Source of the DNA: a virus | Virus genome (UHGV): UHGV-0142298 | Reading direction: 5' to 3' (one strand) | DNA length: 37,340 bases | Shown: in pieces, positions 2,457 through 19,445 of the stretch | Position numbering within the stretch: the stretch's first letter is position 1 | Layout of the letters: every line of letters starts with the position of its first letter | The notes under the pieces: model-generated | What the model saw: only the letters and a program-made list of their open reading frames with translations | Told to the model about the DNA's origin: nothing | Database searches by the model: none | Program-made: the position numbers and the translations under genes

Positions 2457-3079
2457 TGGTTGACTACTTCAATGTATCCTGTATCAACAATGAAAATGTC
2501 CGTTCTTCGCTCACAGAATTAGTGCGACAGCTTCGCACCAAGAGCTGACATTGTAATATCCGACAGGCTATTGCCTGTCAGTTAACAGTTACGTGTTATA
2601 AAAGGTCAGGCGGGATCCTGACTAGGTGTGTTTAAAGAAGTGCTGGTGGTGAGCGGGTGTTGTGTCCAATTTCCACAGAAAAAAATCTGAGAAACTATAC
2701 CCAATAGTTGTATTGAATCACTGACGAGACAGCCTCATATTTATCAGGACTGGTGTACTTCCAATTCAGGAGGTTGTCGTGCTGGTTCTCAAATGTGCGC
2801 TAGCTATTGCGGCTGTAATGGCAATTTATTGTCTTGCTGTTGTTCTTACGGATCGCCTTTCTGATTGATTTTATATTGGCGAGGTGACGTGAGTTAAGTA
2901 GAATTGCTGCGGGTGCTTGAGGCTATCTGCCTCAGGCATGAACACCAACGGCAGATAGAGAAAAGCCCCAGTTAACATTACGCGTCCTGCAAGACGCTTA
3001 ACATTAATCTGAGGCCAATTTCATGCTAGACACATGTAGGTTAGCCTCTTACGTGCCGGAAGGCAAGGAGAAGCAGGCT

Positions 3080-3235
3080 ATGAAGCAGCAAAAGGCGATG
3101 TTAATCGCCCTGATCGTCATCTGTTTAACCGTCATAGTGACGGCACTGGTAACGAGGAAAGACCTCTGCGAGGTACGAATCCGAACCGGCCAGACGGAGG
3201 TCGCTGTCTTCACAGCTTACGAACCTGAGGAGTAA
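3080..3235 (+). CDS. hokD: Hok/Gef-family membrane toxin (type I toxin)
   Basis: 51-aa product MKQQKAMLIALIVICLTVIVTALVTRKDLCEVRIRTGQTEVAVFTAYEPEE has the Hok signature (TM helix, LTRK.LCE.R, EVAAF..YE); the ORF track extends it upstream to 3023 (mok-like leader frame); intrinsic terminator follows. Confidence 0.8.
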   Translation: MKQQKAMLIALIVICLTVIVTALVTRKDLCEVRIRTGQTEVAVFTAYEPEE

Positions 3236-3401: not shown

Positions 3402-4016
3402 ATGCAGAATTTATCTCAACAGTTGTTAGAAGCATATGACAAGGAGTGCCGCAAAGAGCTTTCGATCGCGTTAGCACAGGCTTATCTTCATTCGCATATG
3501 AAGGCAAAAGAGTTTGGTTCTTTTTGGGCTCAAGCACAGTCATATTTGCGCTGGTTTTATGCCGATGCATTGCTTGAGAATGCGGCTAAGCGTGTGGGGC
3601 TGGATTTTGAAGTCGGTAGCAATGCTGCTAAAAATTGTAAACACATTGCGATTCACTCGAACAACTGGAAAATGACGGCACATCATTTATCGGGTAATGC
3701 GCCACTTCCTAAGCAGGCATTGTATAGAGCTGTTTACGCTAATCAAAATTATGAATTGAATTTTGGGGATGAAAATGCCGACTCCCTGGATGGGAGAGCG
3801 TCTGGTGGACATGTTTATATGTTACATGATGGCAGTAATCAGCACTTGTCCAAACTGAATTTAACTGTTCCTTCTTCGGATAATTACGGGATTCTTTATA
3901 CTGAGTCTTTACCAATTATGACGATGGTAGAAGTTGAAGCAGAAAATGTGGATTCTGAGATTGAAGATAAAATCAAGATTCTTACCGAACAAATAATTAA
4001 ATCACAGCAATCATGA
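3402..4016 (+). CDS. Hypothetical protein, first gene of a two-gene cassette (candidate effector/partner of the HTH-peptidase)
   Basis: 204-aa ORF; its stop overlaps the next start in ATGA (4013-4016), implying translational coupling; no recognisable domain or TM segment. Confidence 0.55.
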   Translation: MQNLSQQLLEAYDKECRKELSIALAQAYLHSHMKAKEFGSFWAQAQSYLRWFYADALLENAAKRVGLDFEVGSNAAKNCKHIAIHSNNWKMTAHHLSGNAPLPKQALYRAVYANQNYELNFGDENADSLDGRASGGHVYMLHDGSNQHLSKLNLTVPSSDNYGILYTESLPIMTMVEVEAENVDSEIEDKIKILTEQIIKSQQS

Positions 4017-5158
4017 GCATGAATATCGCACAAACACCATTTACTGATAAATCGTTTAATCCTCGTCGCCTTGAGGAGGCAAGAGAGGCAAAAGGGTTGA
4101 CGATGGCTGAACTTGCCAGAGTGCTCAATATTTCAAGACAAGCTATTTCGTCATTTGAGAAGGGGTTGAAGTCTCCCTCTGCTGATACACTTTCTGCAAT
4201 AGCCAAGGTGTTAGGATTTCCAGAACGATTTTTCTTAGCCTCCAGTGCTTCTCCATCTCTGGAGGGGGCGATTCATTTTAGAAGTCGTTCAACTGCGACC
4301 AAAAAGGCTCGAGTTACAGGGAAAACACGTGGGCGTTGGGCGGCATTAATATTGGATGAATGTCTAAAATATGCTCAATTACCAGATGTGGTTCTGCCTG
4401 AATTCGATATTATTGATTTTGAGGTTCTGTCTCTATCTGATATTGAGGATATGTCCACCCAATTAAGGCGTTTTTGGGGGTTAGGTGATGGTCCAATACT
4501 CAATTTAACTAGACTTGTTGAAAATAAAGGAATCGTGGTTTCTCATTTACCTTCTGGTGAGAAAGTTGATGCCTTTTCGTTCTGGCATAATGGGCGGCCT
4601 TTAATTATGTTAGATAGCTCGAAGACGGCTGTTCGCATGCGATTTAGTCTTGCTCATGAACTTGGCCATTTAATTATGCATAGGGCAGTGGAGGATGACT
4701 ACCTGAATGATAAAGAATTATTCGACCTGGTGGAGTTGCAGGCCGATTATTTTGCCTCCAGCTTTTTAATGCCAGCCACCACTTTCGGGCGTGAATTTTA
4801 TAGTCCAAATTTATCAGCGTTAGAACGATTAAAACTACGTTGGATTACATCTATCGGTAGTATTGCCATGAGGAGTCATAGCCTTAAGTTAATCAGCGAT
4901 AATCAGAAAAGCTATATATTTAAGCAATTAGCGCCATTCCATCGTAGGGAGCCGTTAGATGATGCAATCCCAAAAGAAGAGCCTGAGTTACTTAATAAGT
5001 TACTTTTACTTCTTGATAAGCATTCAATCATAAAGGTAACTGAGTTAACTGATATCTTTGCTCTTCCCTTAAATGAGTTATCTGCAATTACACGATTTAA
5101 AGAATCAGATATGATTCATTCTGACAATGTTATTTCATTTACCATAAAACAAAAATAA
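4013..5158 (+). CDS. HTH-XRE DNA-binding domain fused to an ImmA/IrrE-type (M78-like) zinc metallopeptidase
   Basis: N-terminal HTH (LTMAELARVLNISRQAISSFEKG); central HEXXH motif in SLAHELGHLIMH with a downstream acidic/aromatic segment (ELQADYFASSFLMP) typical of ImmA/IrrE peptidases. Confidence 0.75.
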   Translation: MSMNIAQTPFTDKSFNPRRLEEAREAKGLTMAELARVLNISRQAISSFEKGLKSPSADTLSAIAKVLGFPERFFLASSASPSLEGAIHFRSRSTATKKARVTGKTRGRWAALILDECLKYAQLPDVVLPEFDIIDFEVLSLSDIEDMSTQLRRFWGLGDGPILNLTRLVENKGIVVSHLPSGEKVDAFSFWHNGRPLIMLDSSKTAVRMRFSLAHELGHLIMHRAVEDDYLNDKELFDLVELQADYFASSFLMPATTFGREFYSPNLSALERLKLRWITSIGSIAMRSHSLKLISDNQKSYIFKQLAPFHRREPLDDAIPKEEPELLNKLLLLLDKHSIIKVTELTDIFALPLNELSAITRFKESDMIHSDNVISFTIKQK

Positions 5159-5167
5159 TTCTCATTC

Positions 5168-5195
5168 ATACCCGCCTCGGCGGGTTTTTGTTTTA
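5168..5195 (+). terminator. Intrinsic terminator after the HTH-peptidase gene
   Basis: CCCGCC-TC-GGCGGG hairpin plus TTTTTGTTTT; same hairpin family as the terminator after hok. Confidence 0.6.
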
Positions 5196-5505
5196 CGTAT
5201 TCTGGTTTACAATCCACAGGCCAGCCTGAACAACTGGCACCTGCTGCGCCAGCAGAGACAACCGATGGCGCACGATACCAAATTACACAATTCTGATGAT
5301 TCTGCCGTCTTTGCCAGCAGGCACGGGCGGCGCTCTCACGCATTTAAATCTGATTGGTACCAGCATCCCCCATGCACTGAAGAACAGGCCGAATGGCTGA
5401 TTCATTCTTACCGCAGGCGCGGGTTCGAGGTTAAGAAAGCTCTCAGTCTCGACTATCGGCACTGGATAATCTCTGTCAGGCTGCCTTATTCCGAACGCCC
5501 ACCAC

Positions 5506-6153
5506 GTGCGTCCCGCACTTTCCAGCAACGGATCTGGAGGTAACGTGCGGGTATTACTTAGACCTGTTCTGGTGCCAGAGCTTGGGCTGGTGGTCCTTAA
5601 ACTAGGCCGTGAATCCATGCCGGTATTCCACAATACCCGGGTACTGGTGGAGCCGGAACCGAAAAGCATGCGTAATCTGCCGTCCGGGGTCGTTCCTGCC
5701 GTTCGCCAGCCGCTGGTGGAAGACAAAACATTGCTGCCGTTTTTCAGTAACGCACGGGTGATTCGTGCTGCTGGTGGTGCTGGTGCATTGTCTGACTGGC
5801 TGTTGCGCCATATTAAATCCTGCCAGTGGCCGCACGGCGATTATCATCACAGCGAAACCGTCATTCACCGTTATGGTACCGGCGCAATGGTGTTGTGCTG
5901 GCACTGCGACAACCAACTGCGTGACCAGACATCCGAATCACTCGAGCAACTTGCTCATCAAAACCTGTCAGCATGGATGATTGACGTCATCGGTCACGCA
6001 ATAAGCGGTACGCAGGAGCGTGAATTATCTCTGGCTGAATTATCCTGGTGGGCGCTCCGCAATCAGGTGGCGGACGCGCTACCGGAAGCGGTATTACGTC
6101 GTTCGCTGGGATTACCAGCGGAAAATTCATACTATATTAGGAATAGTCCATAA
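5506..6153 (+). CDS. Hypothetical Cys/His-rich protein in the position of a late-gene regulator (possible Q-like antiterminator); start uncertain
   Basis: 215-aa ORF from GTG 5506 (alternative ATG 5620); contains HGDYHH...CWHCDNQ; a second frame (5265-5543) overlaps upstream, so a frameshifted or longer gene is possible. Confidence 0.3.
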   Translation: MRPALSSNGSGGNVRVLLRPVLVPELGLVVLKLGRESMPVFHNTRVLVEPEPKSMRNLPSGVVPAVRQPLVEDKTLLPFFSNARVIRAAGGAGALSDWLLRHIKSCQWPHGDYHHSETVIHRYGTGAMVLCWHCDNQLRDQTSESLEQLAHQNLSAWMIDVIGHAISGTQERELSLAELSWWALRNQVADALPEAVLRRSLGLPAENSYYIRNSP

Positions 6154-6243: not shown

Positions 6244-7203
6244 ATGATAAAAAAACCTGTGATTGGAATCAGCGGTTGTTTGGCCGGTTCTGCTGTTCGT
6301 TTTGATGGTGGTCACAAAAGAGCTGACTTTTTAATGGACAAATTAGTGGAATGGGTAACATTCAGACCAGTATGTCCGGAAATGGCTATAGGGCTGCCAG
6401 TTCCGCGTCCTGCTCTACGTCTTGTGCGCTCGAAGCAAGGAAATATACGGATGTGTTTCAGCCACGACCAGAATGAGGATGTGACAGAGAGAATGACAGA
6501 GTTTAGTCGTTCTTATATGCACAAATTAAAGGATGTATCGGGGTTTGTGGTTTGTGCTAAATCTCCCAGCTGTGGCATGGAGCGCGTGCGTGTCTATGAT
6601 GAAAATGGTAATCGAGGTCGTAAAGATGGAGTGGGACTATTTACGAGCACTTTGATGGAAAAGTTTTCCTGGCTACCGGTTGAAGAGGATGGGCGATTAC
6701 ATGATCCAGTGCTTCGTGAGAATTTTGTTGAAAGAGTTTTTGCTTTGCATGAGCTCAATCACCTTTACAAGGAGAAATTATCAAGAAGAGAGTTATTAGC
6801 TTTTCATAGTCGTTATAAGCTTCAGTTGTTGGCGCATAGTCAGGCAGGCTATAAAGATATGGGACCATTTGTGGCTGCAATACACGAGTGGGCGGACCTT
6901 GAATCATACTTTGAGGTGTATCGTGATAAGCTGATGGCGATTCTCAGAAAACCTGCATCACGTAAAAATCACACGAATGTGCTGATGCATATACAGGGGT
7001 ATTTTAGTAATTACTTAAGTACACGCCAGCGTAAAGAGTTGACCGAGGTTATACTTAACTATCGCTTTGGCACATTGCCTCTTCTTGCGCCGTTGACTCT
7101 GCTGAAGCATTATCTGGGTGAGTATCCTAATGATTACTTGCTTACACAGAATTACTTCGATCCCTATCCGGAAGAACTGGCTCTAAGACTGATGGTGAAT
7201 TAA
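6244..7203 (+). CDS. DUF523/DUF1722-like fusion protein (TudS-like thiouracil desulfidase family candidate)
   Basis: 319-aa ORF with RBS GGGGGAGG; N-terminus KPVIGISGCLAGSAVRFDGGHK resembles the DUF523 Cys-containing signature; family assignment is from memory. Confidence 0.6.
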   Translation: MIKKPVIGISGCLAGSAVRFDGGHKRADFLMDKLVEWVTFRPVCPEMAIGLPVPRPALRLVRSKQGNIRMCFSHDQNEDVTERMTEFSRSYMHKLKDVSGFVVCAKSPSCGMERVRVYDENGNRGRKDGVGLFTSTLMEKFSWLPVEEDGRLHDPVLRENFVERVFALHELNHLYKEKLSRRELLAFHSRYKLQLLAHSQAGYKDMGPFVAAIHEWADLESYFEVYRDKLMAILRKPASRKNHTNVLMHIQGYFSNYLSTRQRKELTEVILNYRFGTLPLLAPLTLLKHYLGEYPNDYLLTQNYFDPYPEELALRLMVN

Positions 7204-7600
7204 CTGTATGCGATATCATCTGAAAGTGATGAGTTCCTGTATGCAGGATATTTACAATCGTAAAAACTACACTATGATACCCATAGTGTCAGTTTGTATA
7301 AAAATCCTGTTCACGCTGAAGAAAACATTGAGATGCAATTTAATGTTGGTAAACATACCAGCCCCAAAAGATTTTATTCAATCTGTTTTTATATGAAGAT
7401 ATTTCAAGTGAATATTAAGAGTATATAATATTATTATTGCACGCAGCTATTATAATATAACAGATTAGTTTAATGATTTGTTTTTTGTGAGTTAAACACA
7501 TGGTTTTATAGTTGTGATGCAATGAGATTTTCCTTATTGTTGAACTGGCGAATATTGATTTTCCACCTATACTTACCTGGTGTAACCCCAGTGATATCAG

Positions 7601-8323
7601 GTGGATAATATGCCATACATATGTTCTGTCATTTTGGTGTTGAACTCGTTTGGTGTCCGAATTGGTAAAGAAGATATTTTGTTTAAAAAAGGAAGTGCTG
7701 TCCTCATCGAATACAATTTAAAAGATCTTTTTTCGTCAAATACAGATCATCTAATGATCGTAGATGTTGAGGAGAAAACAGTTAATGATTTCTTTAAAAA
7801 CTACACACTCTCACCTTTTTCTGTAAGAAGGTTTTATCCGTCATACTTGATAGTAGAATGTGAAGATTTTTCATTGTTAAGGAACTTGGTTGCATGCTTG
7901 AATTGTGATAGCAAAACCGTGGATGTAGTTAGAAATCAAATATCACTTGCATGTCTTGCTGTCTTATCTTCAGAGAAAATAGTGCAAAGTTTTTTGTTCG
8001 GAAGTCTTAATAGCTTAGGTTGTAAAGTTAAGGCTATTATTCACTCGGATATCTCAGCGTCATGGAGACTTTGTGATATATCTTCAAGATTATATATGAG
8101 CGAGAGTTTGTTAAAAAGAAAATTAAAAGACGAAGGATTATCGTTTAGTAAATTAATTCTTGAAGAACGAATGATGATGGCGCAAAGATTATTGATCTAC
8201 AGTAACCATACTGTCGGCAAGGTGGCGGGAATATGCGGGTATGACAATGCATCATATTTTGTAAGTGTTTTTAGAGGATATTTTGGTGTGCCTCCGCACC
8301 AATATTTATCAAGATTTTCTTAG
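7601..8323 (+). CDS. AraC-family transcriptional regulator (cargo gene)
   Basis: 240-aa ORF in a very AT-rich island; C-terminal AraC-type HTH (VGKVAGICGYDNASYFVSVFRGYFGVPPHQY). Confidence 0.75.
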   Translation: MDNMPYICSVILVLNSFGVRIGKEDILFKKGSAVLIEYNLKDLFSSNTDHLMIVDVEEKTVNDFFKNYTLSPFSVRRFYPSYLIVECEDFSLLRNLVACLNCDSKTVDVVRNQISLACLAVLSSEKIVQSFLFGSLNSLGCKVKAIIHSDISASWRLCDISSRLYMSESLLKRKLKDEGLSFSKLILEERMMMAQRLLIYSNHTVGKVAGICGYDNASYFVSVFRGYFGVPPHQYLSRFS

Positions 8324-8389
8324 AAGATATGATGTGATGGCATTTTATAAAGTTATTTTTTGAAGTGTAAGATTATACGATATTTTTAG

Positions 8390-8425
8390 CTACGCCAGAA
8401 TAATTGCTGGCGTTTTTCTTTTTGA
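8390..8425 (+). terminator. Intrinsic terminator upstream of the lysis cassette (tR'-like position)
   Basis: ACGCCAG-AATAATTG-CTGGCGT hairpin followed by TTTTTCTTTTT. Confidence 0.55.
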
Positions 8426-8513
8426 ATAGATGTTCGGGCCTTACGCTAATGTAACTTCTTTCCTTCTTCGAACCAAACCGTGTACACCATCCGTTATCTG
8501 CGGAGGTGAGGCT

Positions 8514-8729
8514 ATGAAATCCATGGATAAGTTAACAACGGGCATCGCCTACAGCACCTCTGCAGGCAGTGCTGGCTACTGGTTTTTACAGTTGCTCGAT
8601 AAAGTCACGCCCTCACAGTGGGCGGCAATAGGTGTATTGGGTAGTCTGGTATTTGGCATGCTGACGTATCTGACAAACCTTTATTTCAAGATTAAAGAAG
8701 ACAGGCGTAAGGTTGCGAGAAGAGAGTAA
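8514..8729 (+). CDS. essQ: Class II holin (phage 21 S-type pinholin-like)
   Basis: 71 aa from [10 protein letters not shown] with two TM segments and a charged C-terminus ([13 protein letters not shown]); directly upstream of a SAR endolysin. Confidence 0.75.
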
Positions 8730-8733
8730 TCCA

Positions 8734-9285
8734 ATGACTCAAGACTATGAACTGGTTGTGAAAGGAGTTCGCAATTTTGAGAATAAAGTGGCGGTAACTG
8801 TAGCCTTACGGGACAAAAAACACTTTGACGGTGAAATTTTTGACCTGGACATCTCGCTGGACCGTGTTGAAGGTGCCGCGCTGGAGTTTTATGAGGCAGC
8901 AGCCAGAAGGAGCATCAGACAGGTCTTCCTGGATGTTGCTGCCGGGTTATGTGAAGGGGATGAGCAGTCGCCGGAAAAGCGCCCCATAATTTTAGAGGCG
9001 CAGAATGTGTGGATAACCTACAAAGGAAAGCTACCGGGAAGAATTACTGGTTCTCTGAAGACGCCACCGACGGCATTGCGGTCAGAAAAAGATGATATTG
9101 AATCGCCCATTGAAAAACTGGAGGGCAGCGTCGCTGATCTGAATAAAAAATTGTCGGTGCTGATTCCTTCTGAAGATGAAAAAAAACGCCGCGATGAGCA
9201 GTTTGCGGCGTTTTACGATTATTGCATTGAAGTTACTCGCAGGAATTTTGTGAAGATTTTTGAGGAGGGTAAATCTCTTCAGTAA
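8734..9285 (+). CDS. Hypothetical protein inserted between holin and endolysin (YdfR/DUF1327-like N-terminus, extended C-terminus)
   Basis: ORF from MTQDYELVVKGVRNFENK; sits where ydfR lies in Qin-type lysis cassettes but is about 80 aa longer; start may instead be 8713. Confidence 0.45.
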   Translation: MTQDYELVVKGVRNFENKVAVTVALRDKKHFDGEIFDLDISLDRVEGAALEFYEAAARRSIRQVFLDVAAGLCEGDEQSPEKRPIILEAQNVWITYKGKLPGRITGSLKTPPTALRSEKDDIESPIEKLEGSVADLNKKLSVLIPSEDEKKRRDEQFAAFYDYCIEVTRRNFVKIFEEGKSLQ

Positions 9286-9606: not shown

Positions 9607-10634
<1,028 letters not shown>

Positions 10635-10997
10635 ATTAATATTAAATCGGATTATTTTTAGCGCTGAATGTGAAATTTAAATAAAAAGGACTCTTCCATG
10701 AGTCAAAATCCTTGAAATCTTAAGGGTAAGATAAAAGGTCATTAGACAGAATGACACGTTTTATTAATAAATAAAGCTATTGTTTCATTCGTGTGTTTTT
10801 CTTTACAAAAGTAATCCTTGCTATGGTTGGTTAATCATGCGTTAATGGTGTTCTGGTTTGTTACAAAATTATCTGAAGCAGTCATTGTTATAATTTTATT
10901 ATTTGTACCTCTTGAGATTTCCTTGTTGGTTTTTCTCTCTGATATTTTTTTTCGGACCATTCTGCCCAAGGGCTAACTTCTTCAAAAGGTAATAATG

Positions 10998-11210
10998 ATG
11001 TCTAACAAAATGACTGGTTTAGTGAAATGGTTTAACCCTGAAAAAGGTTTTGGTTTCATCACGCCGAAAGATGGTAGCAAAGATGTGTTTGTCCATTTCT
11101 CAGCTATTCAGAGCAACGATTTCAAAACGTTAACTGAGAATCAGGAAGTCGAATTTGGTATTGAGAACGGACCTAAAGGCCCCGCGGCTGTTCATGTTGT
11201 GGCACTTTGA
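10998..11210 (+). CDS. cspI: Cold-shock protein (CspA family)
   Basis: [23 protein letters not shown]...VFVHFSAIQ contains the RNP1/RNP2 motifs of CspA-family proteins; long AT-rich leader upstream (10640-10995). Confidence 0.8.
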
Positions 11211-11409
11211 GGTAGATAATATTACAAACCATATTCACTTTAGATGCCCGTGTTGCCATGGTTCTCAGTATAGAACATCATCTTTTGATGTTTCTGACAG
11301 GAATCCTTTCGGGGCAAAATGTATCTTTTGTAAATCAATGATGATTACATTTGATAATATTTCACAATACTTAAATGTTAGCCGTCTATCGTTAGATTTA
11401 AGAAAGTGA
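11194..11409 (+). CDS. Possible small zinc-ribbon protein
   Basis: ORF with CPCCHG...CIFC spacing, ending just before a strong terminator; start unclear and overlaps the cspI 3' end. Confidence 0.2.
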
Positions 11410-11411
11410 AA

Positions 11412-11440
11412 ATGAAGGCTCCTTCGGGAGCTTTTTTTCT
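11412..11440 (+). terminator. Intrinsic terminator
   Basis: GAAGGCTCC-TTCG-GGAGCTT hairpin followed by a T7 run. Confidence 0.65.
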
Positions 11441-11481
11441 TAGTGTCTAGTCGATGGATACTCACATAATACGGTAACATT

Positions 11482-11712
11482 ATGAAAAAAATAATAGTTT
11501 TTTTTAACTCTGAACCAGCAATGGTAGTGCCAGTGATGACCGGAGTTAACACCATCATGCGTGAATATCCAAATGGCGAAACAACACACCTCACTGTAAT
11601 GGCTGCAGGGTTTCCATCTCTGACCGGAGATCATAAAGTCATTTATGTAGCAGCGGATCGACATGTAACTTCAGAAGAAATTCTGGAAGCAGCAATGAGA
11701 CTCTTGAATTGA
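11482..11712 (+). CDS. Hypothetical protein
   Basis: 76-aa ORF in the AT-rich post-lysis accessory region; no motif. Confidence 0.35.
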   Translation: MKKIIVFFNSEPAMVVPVMTGVNTIMREYPNGETTHLTVMAAGFPSLTGDHKVIYVAADRHVTSEEILEAAMRLLN

Positions 11713-15965: not shown

Positions 15966-17473
15966 TGGCAATTCTTGATGATGTGATTGGCGTTTTTTCA
16001 CCAGGATGGAAAGCGGCAAGGCTGCGTTCCCGGGCGGTGATCCAGGCTTATGAGGCCGTAAAAACGACGCGGACACACAAAGCCCGGCGGGAAAACCGAA
16101 CTGCCGACCAGTTAAGCCTCTACGGGGCCGTGTCGTTACGTGAGCAGGCCCGTTACCTTGATAACAACCACGATCTGGTCATTGGTGTATTTGACAAGCT
16201 GGAAGAACGGGTGGTGGGGAAAAACGGGATTATTGTCGAGCCACATCCGGTATTACGCAATGGGGCCATTGCCCGTGATCTGGCAGCGGAGATACGCACC
16301 CGATGGAGTGAATGGTCTGTCAGTCCGGAAGTTACCGGGCAGTTTACCCGTCCGATGCTGGAACGTCTGATGCTGCGTACCTGGCTGCGCGATGGTGAGG
16401 TGTTTGCCCAGATGGTTTCCGGGCGCATAAACAGCCTGACGCCTTCTGCCGGTGTTCATTTCTGGCTGGAGGCACTCGAGCCAGACTTTATTCCCATGAC
16501 CAGTGATGAGAGCAACAGGCTGAATCAGGGCGTGTTTGTTGATGACTGGGGGCGTCCCGAAAAATATCTGGTGTATAAAAGTCGTCCTGTATCCGGACGG
16601 CAGATGGAAACCAAAGAAGTGGATGCAGAGCGAATGCTGCATCTTAAATTTGTTCGCCGTCTGCACCAGATGCGCGGGACGTCTTTATTGTCCGGTGTGC
16701 TGATCCGCCTCAGTGCCCTGAAAGAATATGAAGATTCTGAGCTGACTGCAGCAAGGATCGCTGCTGCTCTGGGGATGTACATCCGCAAAGGCGACGGACA
16801 GAGCTATGAAACGGATGGTAATGACAGCAAGGAGAATGAACGCGAGCTTACCATTCAGCCAGGCATTATTTACGACGATCTGAAACCCGGCGAAGAAATC
16901 GGAATGGTGAAGTCGGATCGCCCCAATCCTAACCTTGAAACTTTTCGTAATGGTCAGTTGCGTGCCGTGGCGGCGGGCAGTCGTCTGAGTTTTTCCAGTA
17001 CAGCGCGCAACTATAACGGCACTTACAGCGCCCAGCGTCAGGAGCTGGTTGAATCCACTGATGGCTACCTGATCCTGCAGGACTGGTTTATTGGTGCCGT
17101 CACCCGCCCGATGTATCGTGCCTGGCTGAAACAGGCTGTGGCATCCGGTGTTATCAGGCTACCCCGCGATCTTGACCGTTCTTCACTGTATACCGCGGTG
17201 TATTCCGGACCGGTGATGCCGTGGATTGACCCTGCTAAGGAGGCTGAGGCCTGGAAAATTCAGATTCGTGGTGGAGCGGCGACAGAATCAGACTGGGTAC
17301 GTGCAGGTGGTCGTAATCCGGATGATGTCAAACGTCGGCGCAAGGCAGAAATTGATGAAAACCGCAAGCTGGATCTGGTATTTGATACCGATCCGGCCAG
17401 TGATAAAGGAGGCAGCAGTGCCGCAACGAAACGACAGGAGCCGCAGCACACCGACGACCAGTCCGAAGAATAA
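15965..17473 (+). CDS. Portal protein (gpB family)
   Basis: About 500 aa from MAILDD; start overlaps the W stop (TGATG); size and order as lambda B. Confidence 0.8.
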   Translation: MAILDDVIGVFSPGWKAARLRSRAVIQAYEAVKTTRTHKARRENRTADQLSLYGAVSLREQARYLDNNHDLVIGVFDKLEERVVGKNGIIVEPHPVLRNGAIARDLAAEIRTRWSEWSVSPEVTGQFTRPMLERLMLRTWLRDGEVFAQMVSGRINSLTPSAGVHFWLEALEPDFIPMTSDESNRLNQGVFVDDWGRPEKYLVYKSRPVSGRQMETKEVDAERMLHLKFVRRLHQMRGTSLLSGVLIRLSALKEYEDSELTAARIAAALGMYIRKGDGQSYETDGNDSKENERELTIQPGIIYDDLKPGEEIGMVKSDRPNPNLETFRNGQLRAVAAGSRLSFSSTARNYNGTYSAQRQELVESTDGYLILQDWFIGAVTRPMYRAWLKQAVASGVIRLPRDLDRSSLYTAVYSGPVMPWIDPAKEAEAWKIQIRGGAATESDWVRAGGRNPDDVKRRRKAEIDENRKLDLVFDTDPASDKGGSSAATKRQEPQHTDDQSEE

Positions 17474-17486
17474 TTCCTGGTTCAGG

Positions 17487-19445
17487 ATGCAGGCTGGTCA
17501 CCAGAGTGACGCGGATATTTATATTTATGACGAGATTGGTTTCTGGGGTGTTACAGCGAAGCAGTTTATCAGTGATCTGAATGCACTGGGCGATATCACC
17601 CACATTAATCTCCATATCAATTCACCGGGTGGCGATGTCTTTGAAGGCATCGCCATTTTTAATGCGCTGAAAACACATGGTGCGTCCATTACCGTTTATG
17701 TCGACGGTGTGGCGGCGTCAATGGCGTCGGTCATTGCGATGGTGGGAAACCCGGTCATTATGCCGGAAAACACCTTCATGATGATTCATAAACCATTTGG
17801 CTTTACGGGCGGTGATGCGGAGGACATGCGCACCTATGCCGACCTGCTCGATAAGGTTGAGGCGGTTCTGTTACCCGCTTATGCACAGAAAACCGGGAAA
17901 ACCACCGATGAAATTGCTGCCATGCTGGCGGATGAGACCTGGATGTCCGGTGCCGAATGTCTGGCACATGGATTTGCTGATCAGGTGACGCCAGCCGTTA
18001 AGGCAATGGCATGTATTCAGTCAAAACGTACAGAGGAATTTAAAAAGATGCCGGAATCCATTCGAAACATGATTACTCCGCCACGCAACAGTGCTCCACG
18101 CGTACAGGATGATGAACCTGCAGCCTCCCGGACGCCAGTGCAGGCAGCAGCACCCGTGGTGGATGAAAACAGTATCCGTGCGCAGGTACTGGCAGAGCAA
18201 AAAGCGCGTGTAAACGGTATTAATGATCTGTTTGCCATGTTTGGCGGGCGTTATCAGACGCTGCAGGCTCAGTGTCTTGCCGATCCTGAGTGTTCGCTGG
18301 AGCAGGCCCGCGAAAAGCTGTTGAACGAGATGGGGCGCGAGTCCACGCCATCCAATAAAAATACACCGGCTCATATTTATGCTGGTAACGGTAATTTTGT
18401 GGGGGACGGGATCCGCCAGGCGCTGATGGCGCGTGCCGGATTTGAAAAAACCGAACGTGATAATGTCTACAACGGGATGACCCTGCGTGAATATGCCCGT
18501 ATGTCACTGACTGAACGGGGTATTGGGGTTTCCGGTTATAACCCGATGCAGATGGTCGGTGCGGCGTTCACCCACAGTACGTCTGACTTCGGTAATATTC
18601 TGCTGGATGTTGCGAACAAAGCCATTCTGCAGGGCTGGGAAGATGCTCCTGAAACCTATGAACAATGGACGCGGAAAGGTCAGTTGTCTGATTTTAAAAT
18701 TGCCCATCGTGTGGGTATGGGGGGCTTCAGTGCTCTGCGTCAGGTGCGTGAAGGGGCGGAATATAAATACGTCACCACCGGAGATAAACAGGCCACTATT
18801 GCACTGGCGACCTATGGCGAGCTGTTCAGTATCACCCGTCAGGCCATTATCAATGATGATCTGAATATGCTGACCGATGTCCCGATGAAACTGGGCCGTG
18901 CGGCGAAATCCACTATTGCCGATCTGGTTTATGCCATTCTGACGTCTAACCCGAAAATCTCCACAGATAATGTAAGTCTGTTCGATAAAGCGAAACATGC
19001 AAACGTACTGGAGAGCGCTGCAATGGACGTGGCATCGCTGGATAAAGCCCGCCAGTTGATGCGCGTTCAGAAAGAGGGGGAGCGTCATCTGAATATTCGT
19101 CCTGCGTTCGTACTGGTACCGACGGCGATGGAGTCTGTTGCTAACCAGGTCATTCGCTCCTCAAGTGTCAAGGGGGCTGACATTAACGCCGGTATTATTA
19201 ACCCGGTGAAAGATTTTGCGACCGTTATTGCAGAGCCTCGTCTTGATGATAACAGCCAGACCACCTTCTACCTGGCTGCGTCAAAAGGCTCCGATACGAT
19301 TGAAGTGGCTTATCTCAACGGTGTGGATACGCCATATATTGATCAGATGGAGGGCTTCAGTGTGGATGGCGTGACAACGAAAGTGCGTATTGACGCCGGT
19401 GTCGCGCCAGTTGATCACCGCGGTCTGGTGAAATGTACGGCGTAA
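17487..19445 (+). CDS. Fused prohead protease (ClpP/S14-like) and major capsid protein
   Basis: N-terminal ClpP-like region (IYIYDEIGFWGV...INSPGGDVFEGIAIFNAL...AASMASVIAM) in one ORF with a long C-terminal capsid-sized domain; no separate scaffold or capsid ORF follows. Confidence 0.75.
   Translation: MQAGHQSDADIYIYDEIGFWGVTAKQFISDLNALGDITHINLHINSPGGDVFEGIAIFNALKTHGASITVYVDGVAASMASVIAMVGNPVIMPENTFMMIHKPFGFTGGDAEDMRTYADLLDKVEAVLLPAYAQKTGKTTDEIAAMLADETWMSGAECLAHGFADQVTPAVKAMACIQSKRTEEFKKMPESIRNMITPPRNSAPRVQDDEPAASRTPVQAAAPVVDENSIRAQVLAEQKARVNGINDLFAMFGGRYQTLQAQCLADPECSLEQAREKLLNEMGRESTPSNKNTPAHIYAGNGNFVGDGIRQALMARAGFEKTERDNVYNGMTLREYARMSLTERGIGVSGYNPMQMVGAAFTHSTSDFGNILLDVANKAILQGWEDAPETYEQWTRKGQLSDFKIAHRVGMGGFSALRQVREGAEYKYVTTGDKQATIALATYGELFSITRQAIINDDLNMLTDVPMKLGRAAKSTIADLVYAILTSNPKISTDNVSLFDKAKHANVLESAAMDVASLDKARQLMRVQKEGERHLNIRPAFVLVPTAMESVANQVIRSSSVKGADINAGIINPVKDFATVIAEPRLDDNSQTTFYLAASKGSDTIEVAYLNGVDTPYIDQMEGFSVDGVTTKVRIDAGVAPVDHRGLVKCTA

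Follow-up and report, generated by a model that had tools for sequence, protein, structure and literature searches.

The window analyzed here, the whole 37,340-nucleotide stretch of virus genome UHGV-0142298, is a Qin-type lambdoid prophage of Escherichia coli. Just upstream of its lysis genes, it carries an intact gene for a 237-residue regulator of the AraC/XylS family (positions 7610 to 8323, + strand). Sequence comparisons assign this protein to the subgroup that includes GadW, YdeO, AppY, PatE, and the Psr proteins, where it belongs to a clade sister to PatE. On balance, the gene appears to be a stand-alone moron, and its product would activate the GadE-centered acid-resistance circuit of the host (gadE/hdeA).

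Family membership and closest relatives

The AraC-type C-terminal helix-turn-helix (HTH) region proposed in an initial annotation of this stretch is readily recognized by Pfam profiles: residues 158 to 234 score 59.9 bits against HTH_18 (cutoff, 33.6 bits) and 42.6 bits against HTH_AraC (cutoff, 26.6 bits). As expected for the AraC/XylS family, these above-threshold matches lie in a C-terminal DNA-binding domain of ~100 residues that contains two HTH motifs (residues 135 to 235; nucleotides 8012 to 8314, + strand). In the AlphaFold model, this domain is predicted to be joined to a variable N-terminal companion domain (approximately residues 1 to 130; nucleotides 7610 to 7999, + strand), which is also a hallmark of the family. 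The model has a mean predicted local distance difference test (pLDDT) score of 76.6; its N-terminal domain is β-rich, and its C-terminal domain comprises seven helices. Residues 1 to 130 form the β-rich domain plus helices, with a pLDDT of ~80 for residues 1 to 60.

In the PHROGs collection, the regulator belongs to phrog_1450, which is labeled “unknown function” (E value of 1.8e-96). The best NCBIfam model is that of YdeO, which aligns over the full length of the protein (residues 1 to 231 with profile positions 1 to 229 of 253). The protein was considered as an equivalog of YdeO (NF007407) and of GadX (NF007432), and both assignments were rejected: the YdeO score is 112.5 bits, where 348 would be required, and the GadX score, with only residues 76 to 235 aligned, is 90 bits, where 500 would be required. 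Scores that far below both cutoffs identify the window protein as a paralog that is neither YdeO nor GadX. Its homologs are 237 to 247 residues long, and its own 90% cluster contains 1,532 members of 237 residues; the regulator is thus full length, and the possibility raised earlier that the gene is a truncated pseudogene does not apply.

Full-length Foldseek searches retrieve CsvR, Rns, and ToxT with E values from 1e-12 to 1e-8, and the modeled DNA-binding domain superimposes on that of GadX (PDB entry 3mkl) with a template modeling (TM) score of 0.90 and a root mean square deviation of 1.5 Å. The full-length TM score against CsvR, Rns, and ToxT is only 0.47 despite E values of ~1e-12, owing to a different orientation of the domains and to the low confidence of the modeled linkers. 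A sequence search of the PDB agrees with the Foldseek matches, the Rns/ToxT-type sequence matches covering mainly the DNA-binding domain. Homology with the GadW/YdeO/AppY/PatE/Psr subgroup, in turn, is colinear over the full length, with gap-free or nearly gap-free alignments over at least residues 1 to 232, GadX being the exception. All full-length members of the subgroup, again except for GadX, share the N-terminal start MxxxCSVI. Only 8 of 1.84 billion representative proteins match at an E value of 1e-30 or better, which makes the full-length family a narrow one.

The homology search and AraC/XylS phylogeny that had been suggested as a check place the window clade, in a neighbor-joining tree, as sister to the PatE clade, followed by Psr, AppY/GadW, YdeO, and GadX. 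The first recognition helix, SESLLKRKLKDE, differs from that of the putative PatE at 1 of 12 positions and is almost unchanged across the subgroup. Lys169 of the window protein is the conserved equivalent of Lys170 of AppY, which is required for DNA binding; the K170E substitution abolishes binding (PMC10057817).

The closest characterized relative is the putative PatE (z0321) of E. coli O157:H7, encoded in CP-933H on O island 8 (OI-8). The PatE and PsrB sequences used for comparison were taken from O157 genomes by their position (in OI-8 and OI-57, respectively), not by locus tags. The CP-933H regulator taken as PatE/z0321 (WP_000246059.1, at ~309 kb) is 48% identical to the window protein in a gap-free alignment of 237 residues; identity is 65% in the DNA-binding domain and only 35% in the N-terminal domain. 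Both genes are prophage-borne and very AT-rich (35% GC for the putative PatE gene versus 34% for the window gene), and they share an upstream TGGCA-N17/18-TATACTT element and the Shine-Dalgarno (SD) sequence. A PatE ortholog (P0016, 84% identity) even occupies the same interval between the Q antiterminator and holin genes as the window gene. However, PatE and the window gene fall into separate clades, and in O157, the PatE gene is located at the tail-fiber/integrase end of a remnant prophage.

PsrA and PsrB (z1789 and z2104) of O157:H7 are likewise AraC-like regulators of ~237 residues, encoded in lambdoid prophages 3′ of the antiterminator gene. Their distance from the window protein exceeds that of PatE, with 38% full-length identity for the CP-933O/OI-57 regulator of EDL933 taken as PsrB/z2104 (WP_000301797.1), and their genes have a higher GC content (44%). 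The psr genes also accompany tRNA, stx, or effector loci and Pch regulators, none of which is present at the window gene. The K-12 proteins GadW, AppY, and YdeO show the same two-domain layout and full-length identities of 34%, 31%, and 29%, respectively, and GadX is 41% identical in the DNA-binding domain only. AppY, encoded in DLP12, resembles the window gene in being prophage-borne and AT-rich (32% GC), but the genomic locations and upstream signals of appY, gadW, and ydeO are unlike those of the window gene. Rns, CsvR, and ToxT share the predicted full-length fold, but their identity to the window protein in structural alignments is only 17 to 19%, and no adhesin or toxin operon is found near the window gene. 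Occurrences of the 8-bp AppY motif ATGSCWGM were also counted (28 in the window versus 13.8 expected, none in the AT-rich island that contains the gene), and this line was dropped since the motif is too short.

Two observations concern the Psr proteins themselves. Reviews place psrA (z1789) in OI-50/CP-933N. Neither annotation nor tblastn reveals an AraC-type gene in Sp6 of strain Sakai or in CP-933N of the resequenced EDL933 (NZ_CP008957.1, positions 1625000 to 1674900). The clade of Sakai is described as lacking psr genes (PMC10877973); the absence from CP-933N of EDL933 might reflect an assembly or strain difference or wrong numbering of the island in the reviews. In addition, phage phiSTEC1575-Stx2k encodes a Psr-type AraC regulator (positions 4001 to 4714 of comparison locus L014) that is 92% identical to the EDL933 CP-933O protein and is located directly upstream of tRNA genes and stx2k. 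A regulator next to stx2k indicates that the family shares a late-region cargo slot with the Shiga toxin genes.

Gene boundaries, prophage setting, and distribution

The regulator gene is the single real gene within the segment from 7400 to 8425 singled out in the initial annotation, which also takes in part of the upstream spacer, with a candidate promoter, and the terminator. The open reading frame (ORF) opens at 7601 (GTG) or, more likely, at 7610 (ATG), the latter being the start chosen by RefSeq in an identical locus, and its stop codon ends at 8323. An SD sequence, AGGTGG (7599 to 7604, + strand), lies 5 nucleotides ahead of the ATG and does not vary among the aligned upstream regions. 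The gene has a GC content of 34.0%, compared to 31.3% for the 406-bp upstream spacer (7204 to 7609) and 28.3% for the 3′ spacer. The block from 7204 to 8429 (32.6% GC) has the lowest GC content of all 1,226-bp stretches of the window (mean, 49.4%; standard deviation, 6.7%), which substantiates the earlier description of a markedly AT-rich island. Acquired AT-rich DNA is generally bound by H-NS. The spacer between ybgA and the regulator gene (7204 to 7609, + strand), a presumed regulatory region by its composition, is therefore a likely H-NS target. Rfam searches detect no RNA family in the island.

A candidate promoter of the regulator gene is found at 7545 to 7573 (+ strand), with a −35-like CTGGCG (7545 to 7550), a 17-nucleotide spacer, and a −10-like TATACT (7568 to 7573). 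About 70 nucleotides upstream of the ATG are conserved across differing genomic contexts and include TGGC(A/G)A, 17 to 18 nucleotides, TATACTT, and then AGGTGG. The TGGC(A/G)A-N17/18-TATACTT element precedes both the orthologs and the PatE-type genes in unrelated contexts, which is consistent with its being the regulator's own promoter. Downstream, a 7-bp G+C-rich stem (ACGCCAG/CTGGCGT, with 5 G-C pairs) with an 8-nucleotide loop occupies positions 8392 to 8413 and is followed by TTTTTCTTTTT. The hairpin is retained in the orthologs, and a similar hairpin with a T-run follows the PatE-type gene in comparison locus L016. The hairpin and T-run at 8392 to 8423 (+ strand) form a credible intrinsic terminator. 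A terminator is thus present as initially annotated, but “strong” overstates it: with a folding energy of −11.3 kcal/mol and a z-score of −2.2 against shuffled sequences, it is a decent one.

In strain Ecol_316 and in further isolates from humans and animals, a lambdoid prophage at the Qin position, next to rspB/ynfA, matches the window at 99.9 to 100% identity. The Ecol_316 prophage carries, in this order, the DUF968 gene, the Q antiterminator gene, a lipocalin gene (minus strand), ybgA, the AraC-type gene, and the holin, lysozyme, and Rz genes. In the window, the regulator gene is preceded by a YbgA-family gene (6244 to 7203, + strand), whose product contains a 2-thiouracil desulfurase-like domain and DUF1722 (Pfam) and belongs to PHROG 3275. 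The regulator gene ends ~190 bp ahead of the class II holin gene (8514 to 8729, + strand), in agreement with the earlier placement just upstream of the holin. This essQ-like gene (Pfam Phage_holin_2_1; RefSeq) is the first of the lysis cassette and lies 3′ of the terminator; its start is the window position that matches the RefSeq essQ start, and its end is that of the ORF with the Pfam match. A comparison of genomic contexts shows that ybgA accompanies the ortholog group of the window gene, not the wider regulator family. PHROG 3275 is labeled “unknown function.”

Compared to the Ecol_316 prophage, which is otherwise 99.9% identical, the window lacks 1,618 bp (positions 17309 to 18926 of comparison locus L001), with the junction at 6125/6126 as defined by blastn and the junction sequence. 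According to Pfam searches of the deleted genes, the missing DNA held the whole of Q (Phage_antitermQ; E value of 3e-50) and the lipocalin gene, along with the DUF968 gene's 3′ half. The late promoter, which is expected just 3′ of Q in lambdoid phages, was probably lost along with it. This loss of Q upstream of the regulator gene was absent from the initial annotation, and the junction is found in none of 5,426 complete E. coli genomes. With Q gone, Q-dependent late transcription cannot drive the cargo or lysis genes of this copy, and ybgA and the regulator gene must rely on promoters of their own. This copy of the prophage is probably devoid of late-gene expression and locked in.

At the DNA level, the regulator gene is present with at least 80% coverage in 996 of the same 5,426 genomes (~18%). 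The lipocalin-ybgA-regulator block between Q and holin also occurs in DLP12-type prophages (85% protein identity), in lambda-like prophages (76%), and on isolated temperate phages, namely, IdasGreatGrand (86%) and the Lambda_ev series, Lambda_2G7a, and 1H12 (76%). Two further relatives, P0013 (60%) and P0016 (51%, and the one that is 84% identical to the putative PatE), are encoded directly between holin and Q genes of different Q families, without ybgA or the lipocalin gene. PatE-type genes are also found at the tail-fiber/integrase end of prophages, and Psr-type genes are found beside tRNA and stx genes. These varied neighbors indicate that the regulator gene moves alone and is tied to no neighboring target. 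In related prophages, the Q-to-holin interval contains the lipocalin gene, ybgA, and the regulator gene, the regulator gene alone, or other cargo. Between these backbone genes, the regulator gene is thus found in some related prophages and missing from others; it deviates from the backbone in composition and has its own terminator. Together with the promoter-like element, these features fit the classic pattern of a moron.

The ratio of nonsynonymous to synonymous substitution rates (dN/dS) among the orthologs is 0.20 to 0.22, with 0.11 to 0.12 in the DNA-binding domain and 0.35 to 0.52 in the N-terminal domain, and the regulator is under purifying selection. Relative to the orthologs from loci L002 and L004, dS is uneven along the gene, with 0.11 to 0.12 in codons 1 to 132 and 0.75 in codons 133 to 237, suggesting that recombination within the gene gave the window allele a different 3′ half, which encodes the DNA-binding domain. 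The window protein is also 6 residues shorter at its end than the 243-residue orthologs and has Gly at position 223, where its closest orthologs and the putative PatE and PsrB have Arg. A scan of species-representative genomes with narrow peptide patterns, a weak negative, returned only one close relative, an 85% ortholog on a 3.2-kb contig (JARKOR010000151.1) binned as “Candidatus Nanosynbacter”. This contig is almost certainly a piece of E. coli phage DNA that was wrongly binned.

Predicted function and alternatives

Several members of the subgroup act on the acid-resistance genes of the host. PatE activates gadE, gadBC, and hdeAB and lowers expression of the enterocyte effacement locus (LEE); PsrA and PsrB act through GadE and YhiF, whose levels they raise, to repress type III secretion, and PsrB, which binds to the promoters of hdeA and gadE, makes for better survival in acid (PMC10877973, PMC8565820). 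Further Psr homologs are reported from the pangenomes of enteropathogenic E. coli and of E. coli linked with meningitis in newborns (PMC10877973). AppY binds to promoters of gadE (P3), gadY, and slp, the acid survival that it confers depends on gadE, and the authors of that study cite PatE and PsrB as parallel cases (PMC10057817). Membership of the window protein in a subgroup that converges on gadE, combined with nearly identical recognition helices, makes activation of the GadE circuit the best-supported mechanism. The earlier proposal of a candidate lysogenic-conversion regulator of the PatE or Rns/ToxT type holds up in view of the 48% identity to the putative PatE, the Rns/ToxT-like fold, and the purifying selection, and “candidate” is an apt word for it.

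Although family membership and the integrity of the gene are well established, its targets and regulation can be sketched only as a prediction from sequence. The gene would be cargo that a Qin-type lambdoid prophage carries as an insertion, with Q and the late promoter on one side and the lysis genes on the other. In a lysogen, it would be transcribed from its own promoter-like element at 7545 to 7573, probably against silencing by H-NS, and would probably respond to stationary phase. The terminator at 8392 to 8423 would keep its transcript out of the holin gene, thereby protecting the lysogen. For this copy, the gene's own promoter would be the only plausible route of expression, since Q is deleted, probably along with the late promoter region. 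The regulator might then bind AT-rich sites at promoters of the host acid fitness island (gadE, hdeA, and their neighbors), as PatE, PsrB, and AppY do. The expected result would be an increase in GadE-dependent acid resistance and, in LEE-bearing strains, an indirect decrease in type III secretion.

A number of observations weigh against this assignment. The PatE and PsrB identities of the comparison proteins derive solely from genomic position. With 35% identity to the putative PatE in the N-terminal domain and no more than 48% identity to any characterized member, the window protein could have different targets. The candidate −35 element of the window allele is weak (3 of 6 matches), and in a generic promoter scan, promoter-like sites are no more common than in shuffled sequence and the 7545-to-7573 element falls below the threshold. 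A literature search found no paper that names this ortholog group or addresses its expression or binding. There is also decay in some strains: truncated variants are common, including a 195-residue cluster with 623 members. In strain NMBU_W05E18, an IS3-family insertion sequence (IS) element (IS2-like, ~1.33 kb; positions 4679 to 5907 of comparison locus L004) lies 3 nucleotides upstream of the ATG. There it replaces the SD sequence and promoter, so that the gene is either inactivated or rewired in its expression.

An alternative is a host-directed regulator whose regulon lies outside GAD and the acid fitness island. Such a regulon could comprise adhesins or fimbriae, which Rns and CsvR control, the anaerobic hya and app operons, or biofilm and motility genes, which are further AppY targets, or could be under the control of a small-molecule ligand held by the N-terminal domain, in the way that Rns and ToxT bind fatty acids. 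We regard this as unlikely, though not negligible. The N-terminal domain is divergent, with 35% identity to the putative PatE and 17 to 26% to the K-12 paralogs, the fold search pairs the full-length protein with CsvR, Rns, and ToxT, and AppY itself has direct targets outside acid resistance, such as nhaR (PMC10057817). Yet all characterized members of the subgroup (GadW, YdeO, AppY, PatE, and PsrB) converge on gadE, and their recognition helices are nearly identical, whereas Rns and ToxT are far more distant at 17 to 19% identity in structural alignments, with sequence matches mostly in the DNA-binding domain. There is very little likelihood that the gene is silent cargo, repressed by H-NS and carried by a defective prophage with no physiological effect on the host. 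Its very AT-rich DNA, the weak −35 element, the loss of Q, and the IS insertion and truncated alleles elsewhere would fit such a state, but purifying selection acts across the orthologs, the ORF is intact at 80% coverage or more in 996 of the 5,426 complete genomes, and the gene is kept on isolated phages.

AraC-family regulators are often encoded beside their targets. The window gene, which in its group of orthologs (76 to 100% identity) always adjoins ybgA, might accordingly regulate neighboring cargo (ybgA and the lipocalin gene) or phage functions such as the lysis cassette. This, too, is quite improbable: the 60% and 51% relatives are found between Q and holin with neither ybgA nor the lipocalin gene, the PatE-type genes at the tail-fiber/integrase end and the Psr-type genes by tRNA and stx have no fixed neighbor, a terminator separates the regulator gene from the holin gene, and the lipocalin gene is deleted in the window while the regulator gene is intact. 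Activation of the GadE circuit remains the preferred assignment. In a more speculative and rather doubtful version, the ortholog group (PHROG 1450) would be a distinct, uncharacterized branch of the PatE/Psr lineage, common outside enterohemorrhagic E. coli (EHEC), whose N-terminal domain senses a signal in the gut, such as a fatty acid of the kind bound by Rns and ToxT.

Other features of the window and biological significance

A second AT-rich island (10450 to 11600, ~35% GC) is located 3′ of the Rz gene. Within it, Rfam identifies a cspA thermoregulator (10840 to 11256; 112.8 bits) ahead of a CspI-like cold-shock gene (10995 to 11210); the island also includes small genes annotated as ynfQ, ynfN, and gnsB in an identical locus. 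The early region includes a hok/sok (hokD) type I toxin-antitoxin locus, to which a sok antitoxin RNA matched by Rfam (2911 to 3085; 115.8 bits) belongs. The segment from 3402 to 5158 encodes a 381-residue protein with HTH_3 and Peptidase_M78 (IrrE/ImmA-like) domains, preceded by an overlapping 204-residue ORF with no Pfam match; the two could be a pair related to defence or could form a derepression module of the ImmA/IrrE type. PADLOC defence models give no match to the regulator, YbgA, or the lipocalin at an E value of 0.01 or better. The end of the holin gene is overlapped by a 190-residue ORF (8713 to 9285) that contains DUF1327 (YdfR) at residues 8 to 119 and a long unrelated tail and that RefSeq treats as an incomplete YdfR pseudogene in an identical locus.

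AraC-like acid-resistance regulators encoded by prophages are already well established as a category, and the window gene is an uncharacterized paralog in a well-known type of location. The finding helps annotation and provides a target for cloning; as a lysogenic-conversion candidate, the gene is unsurprising, a reasonable but ordinary one. It would be of more interest if its group proved to be a widespread, signal-responsive input to GadE in non-EHEC E. coli. In commensal and extraintestinal strains, the group is carried by prophages of the Qin, DLP12, and lambda types; if the signal-sensing version were true, their carriage would be a widespread, signal-dependent input to the GadE circuit, and in Q-deleted prophages the regulator would effectively be a domesticated host gene. 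The GadE network governs survival during passage through the stomach and, in attaching and effacing strains, also type III secretion. Phage-delivered input to it has so far been documented only for O157 (PatE and PsrA/PsrB) and K-12 (AppY). If the predicted function is correct, about 1 in 5 sequenced E. coli strains would carry such an additional input, and lambdoid phages would spread regulatory cargo, not toxins only, in the slot held by stx in the Shiga toxin phages.

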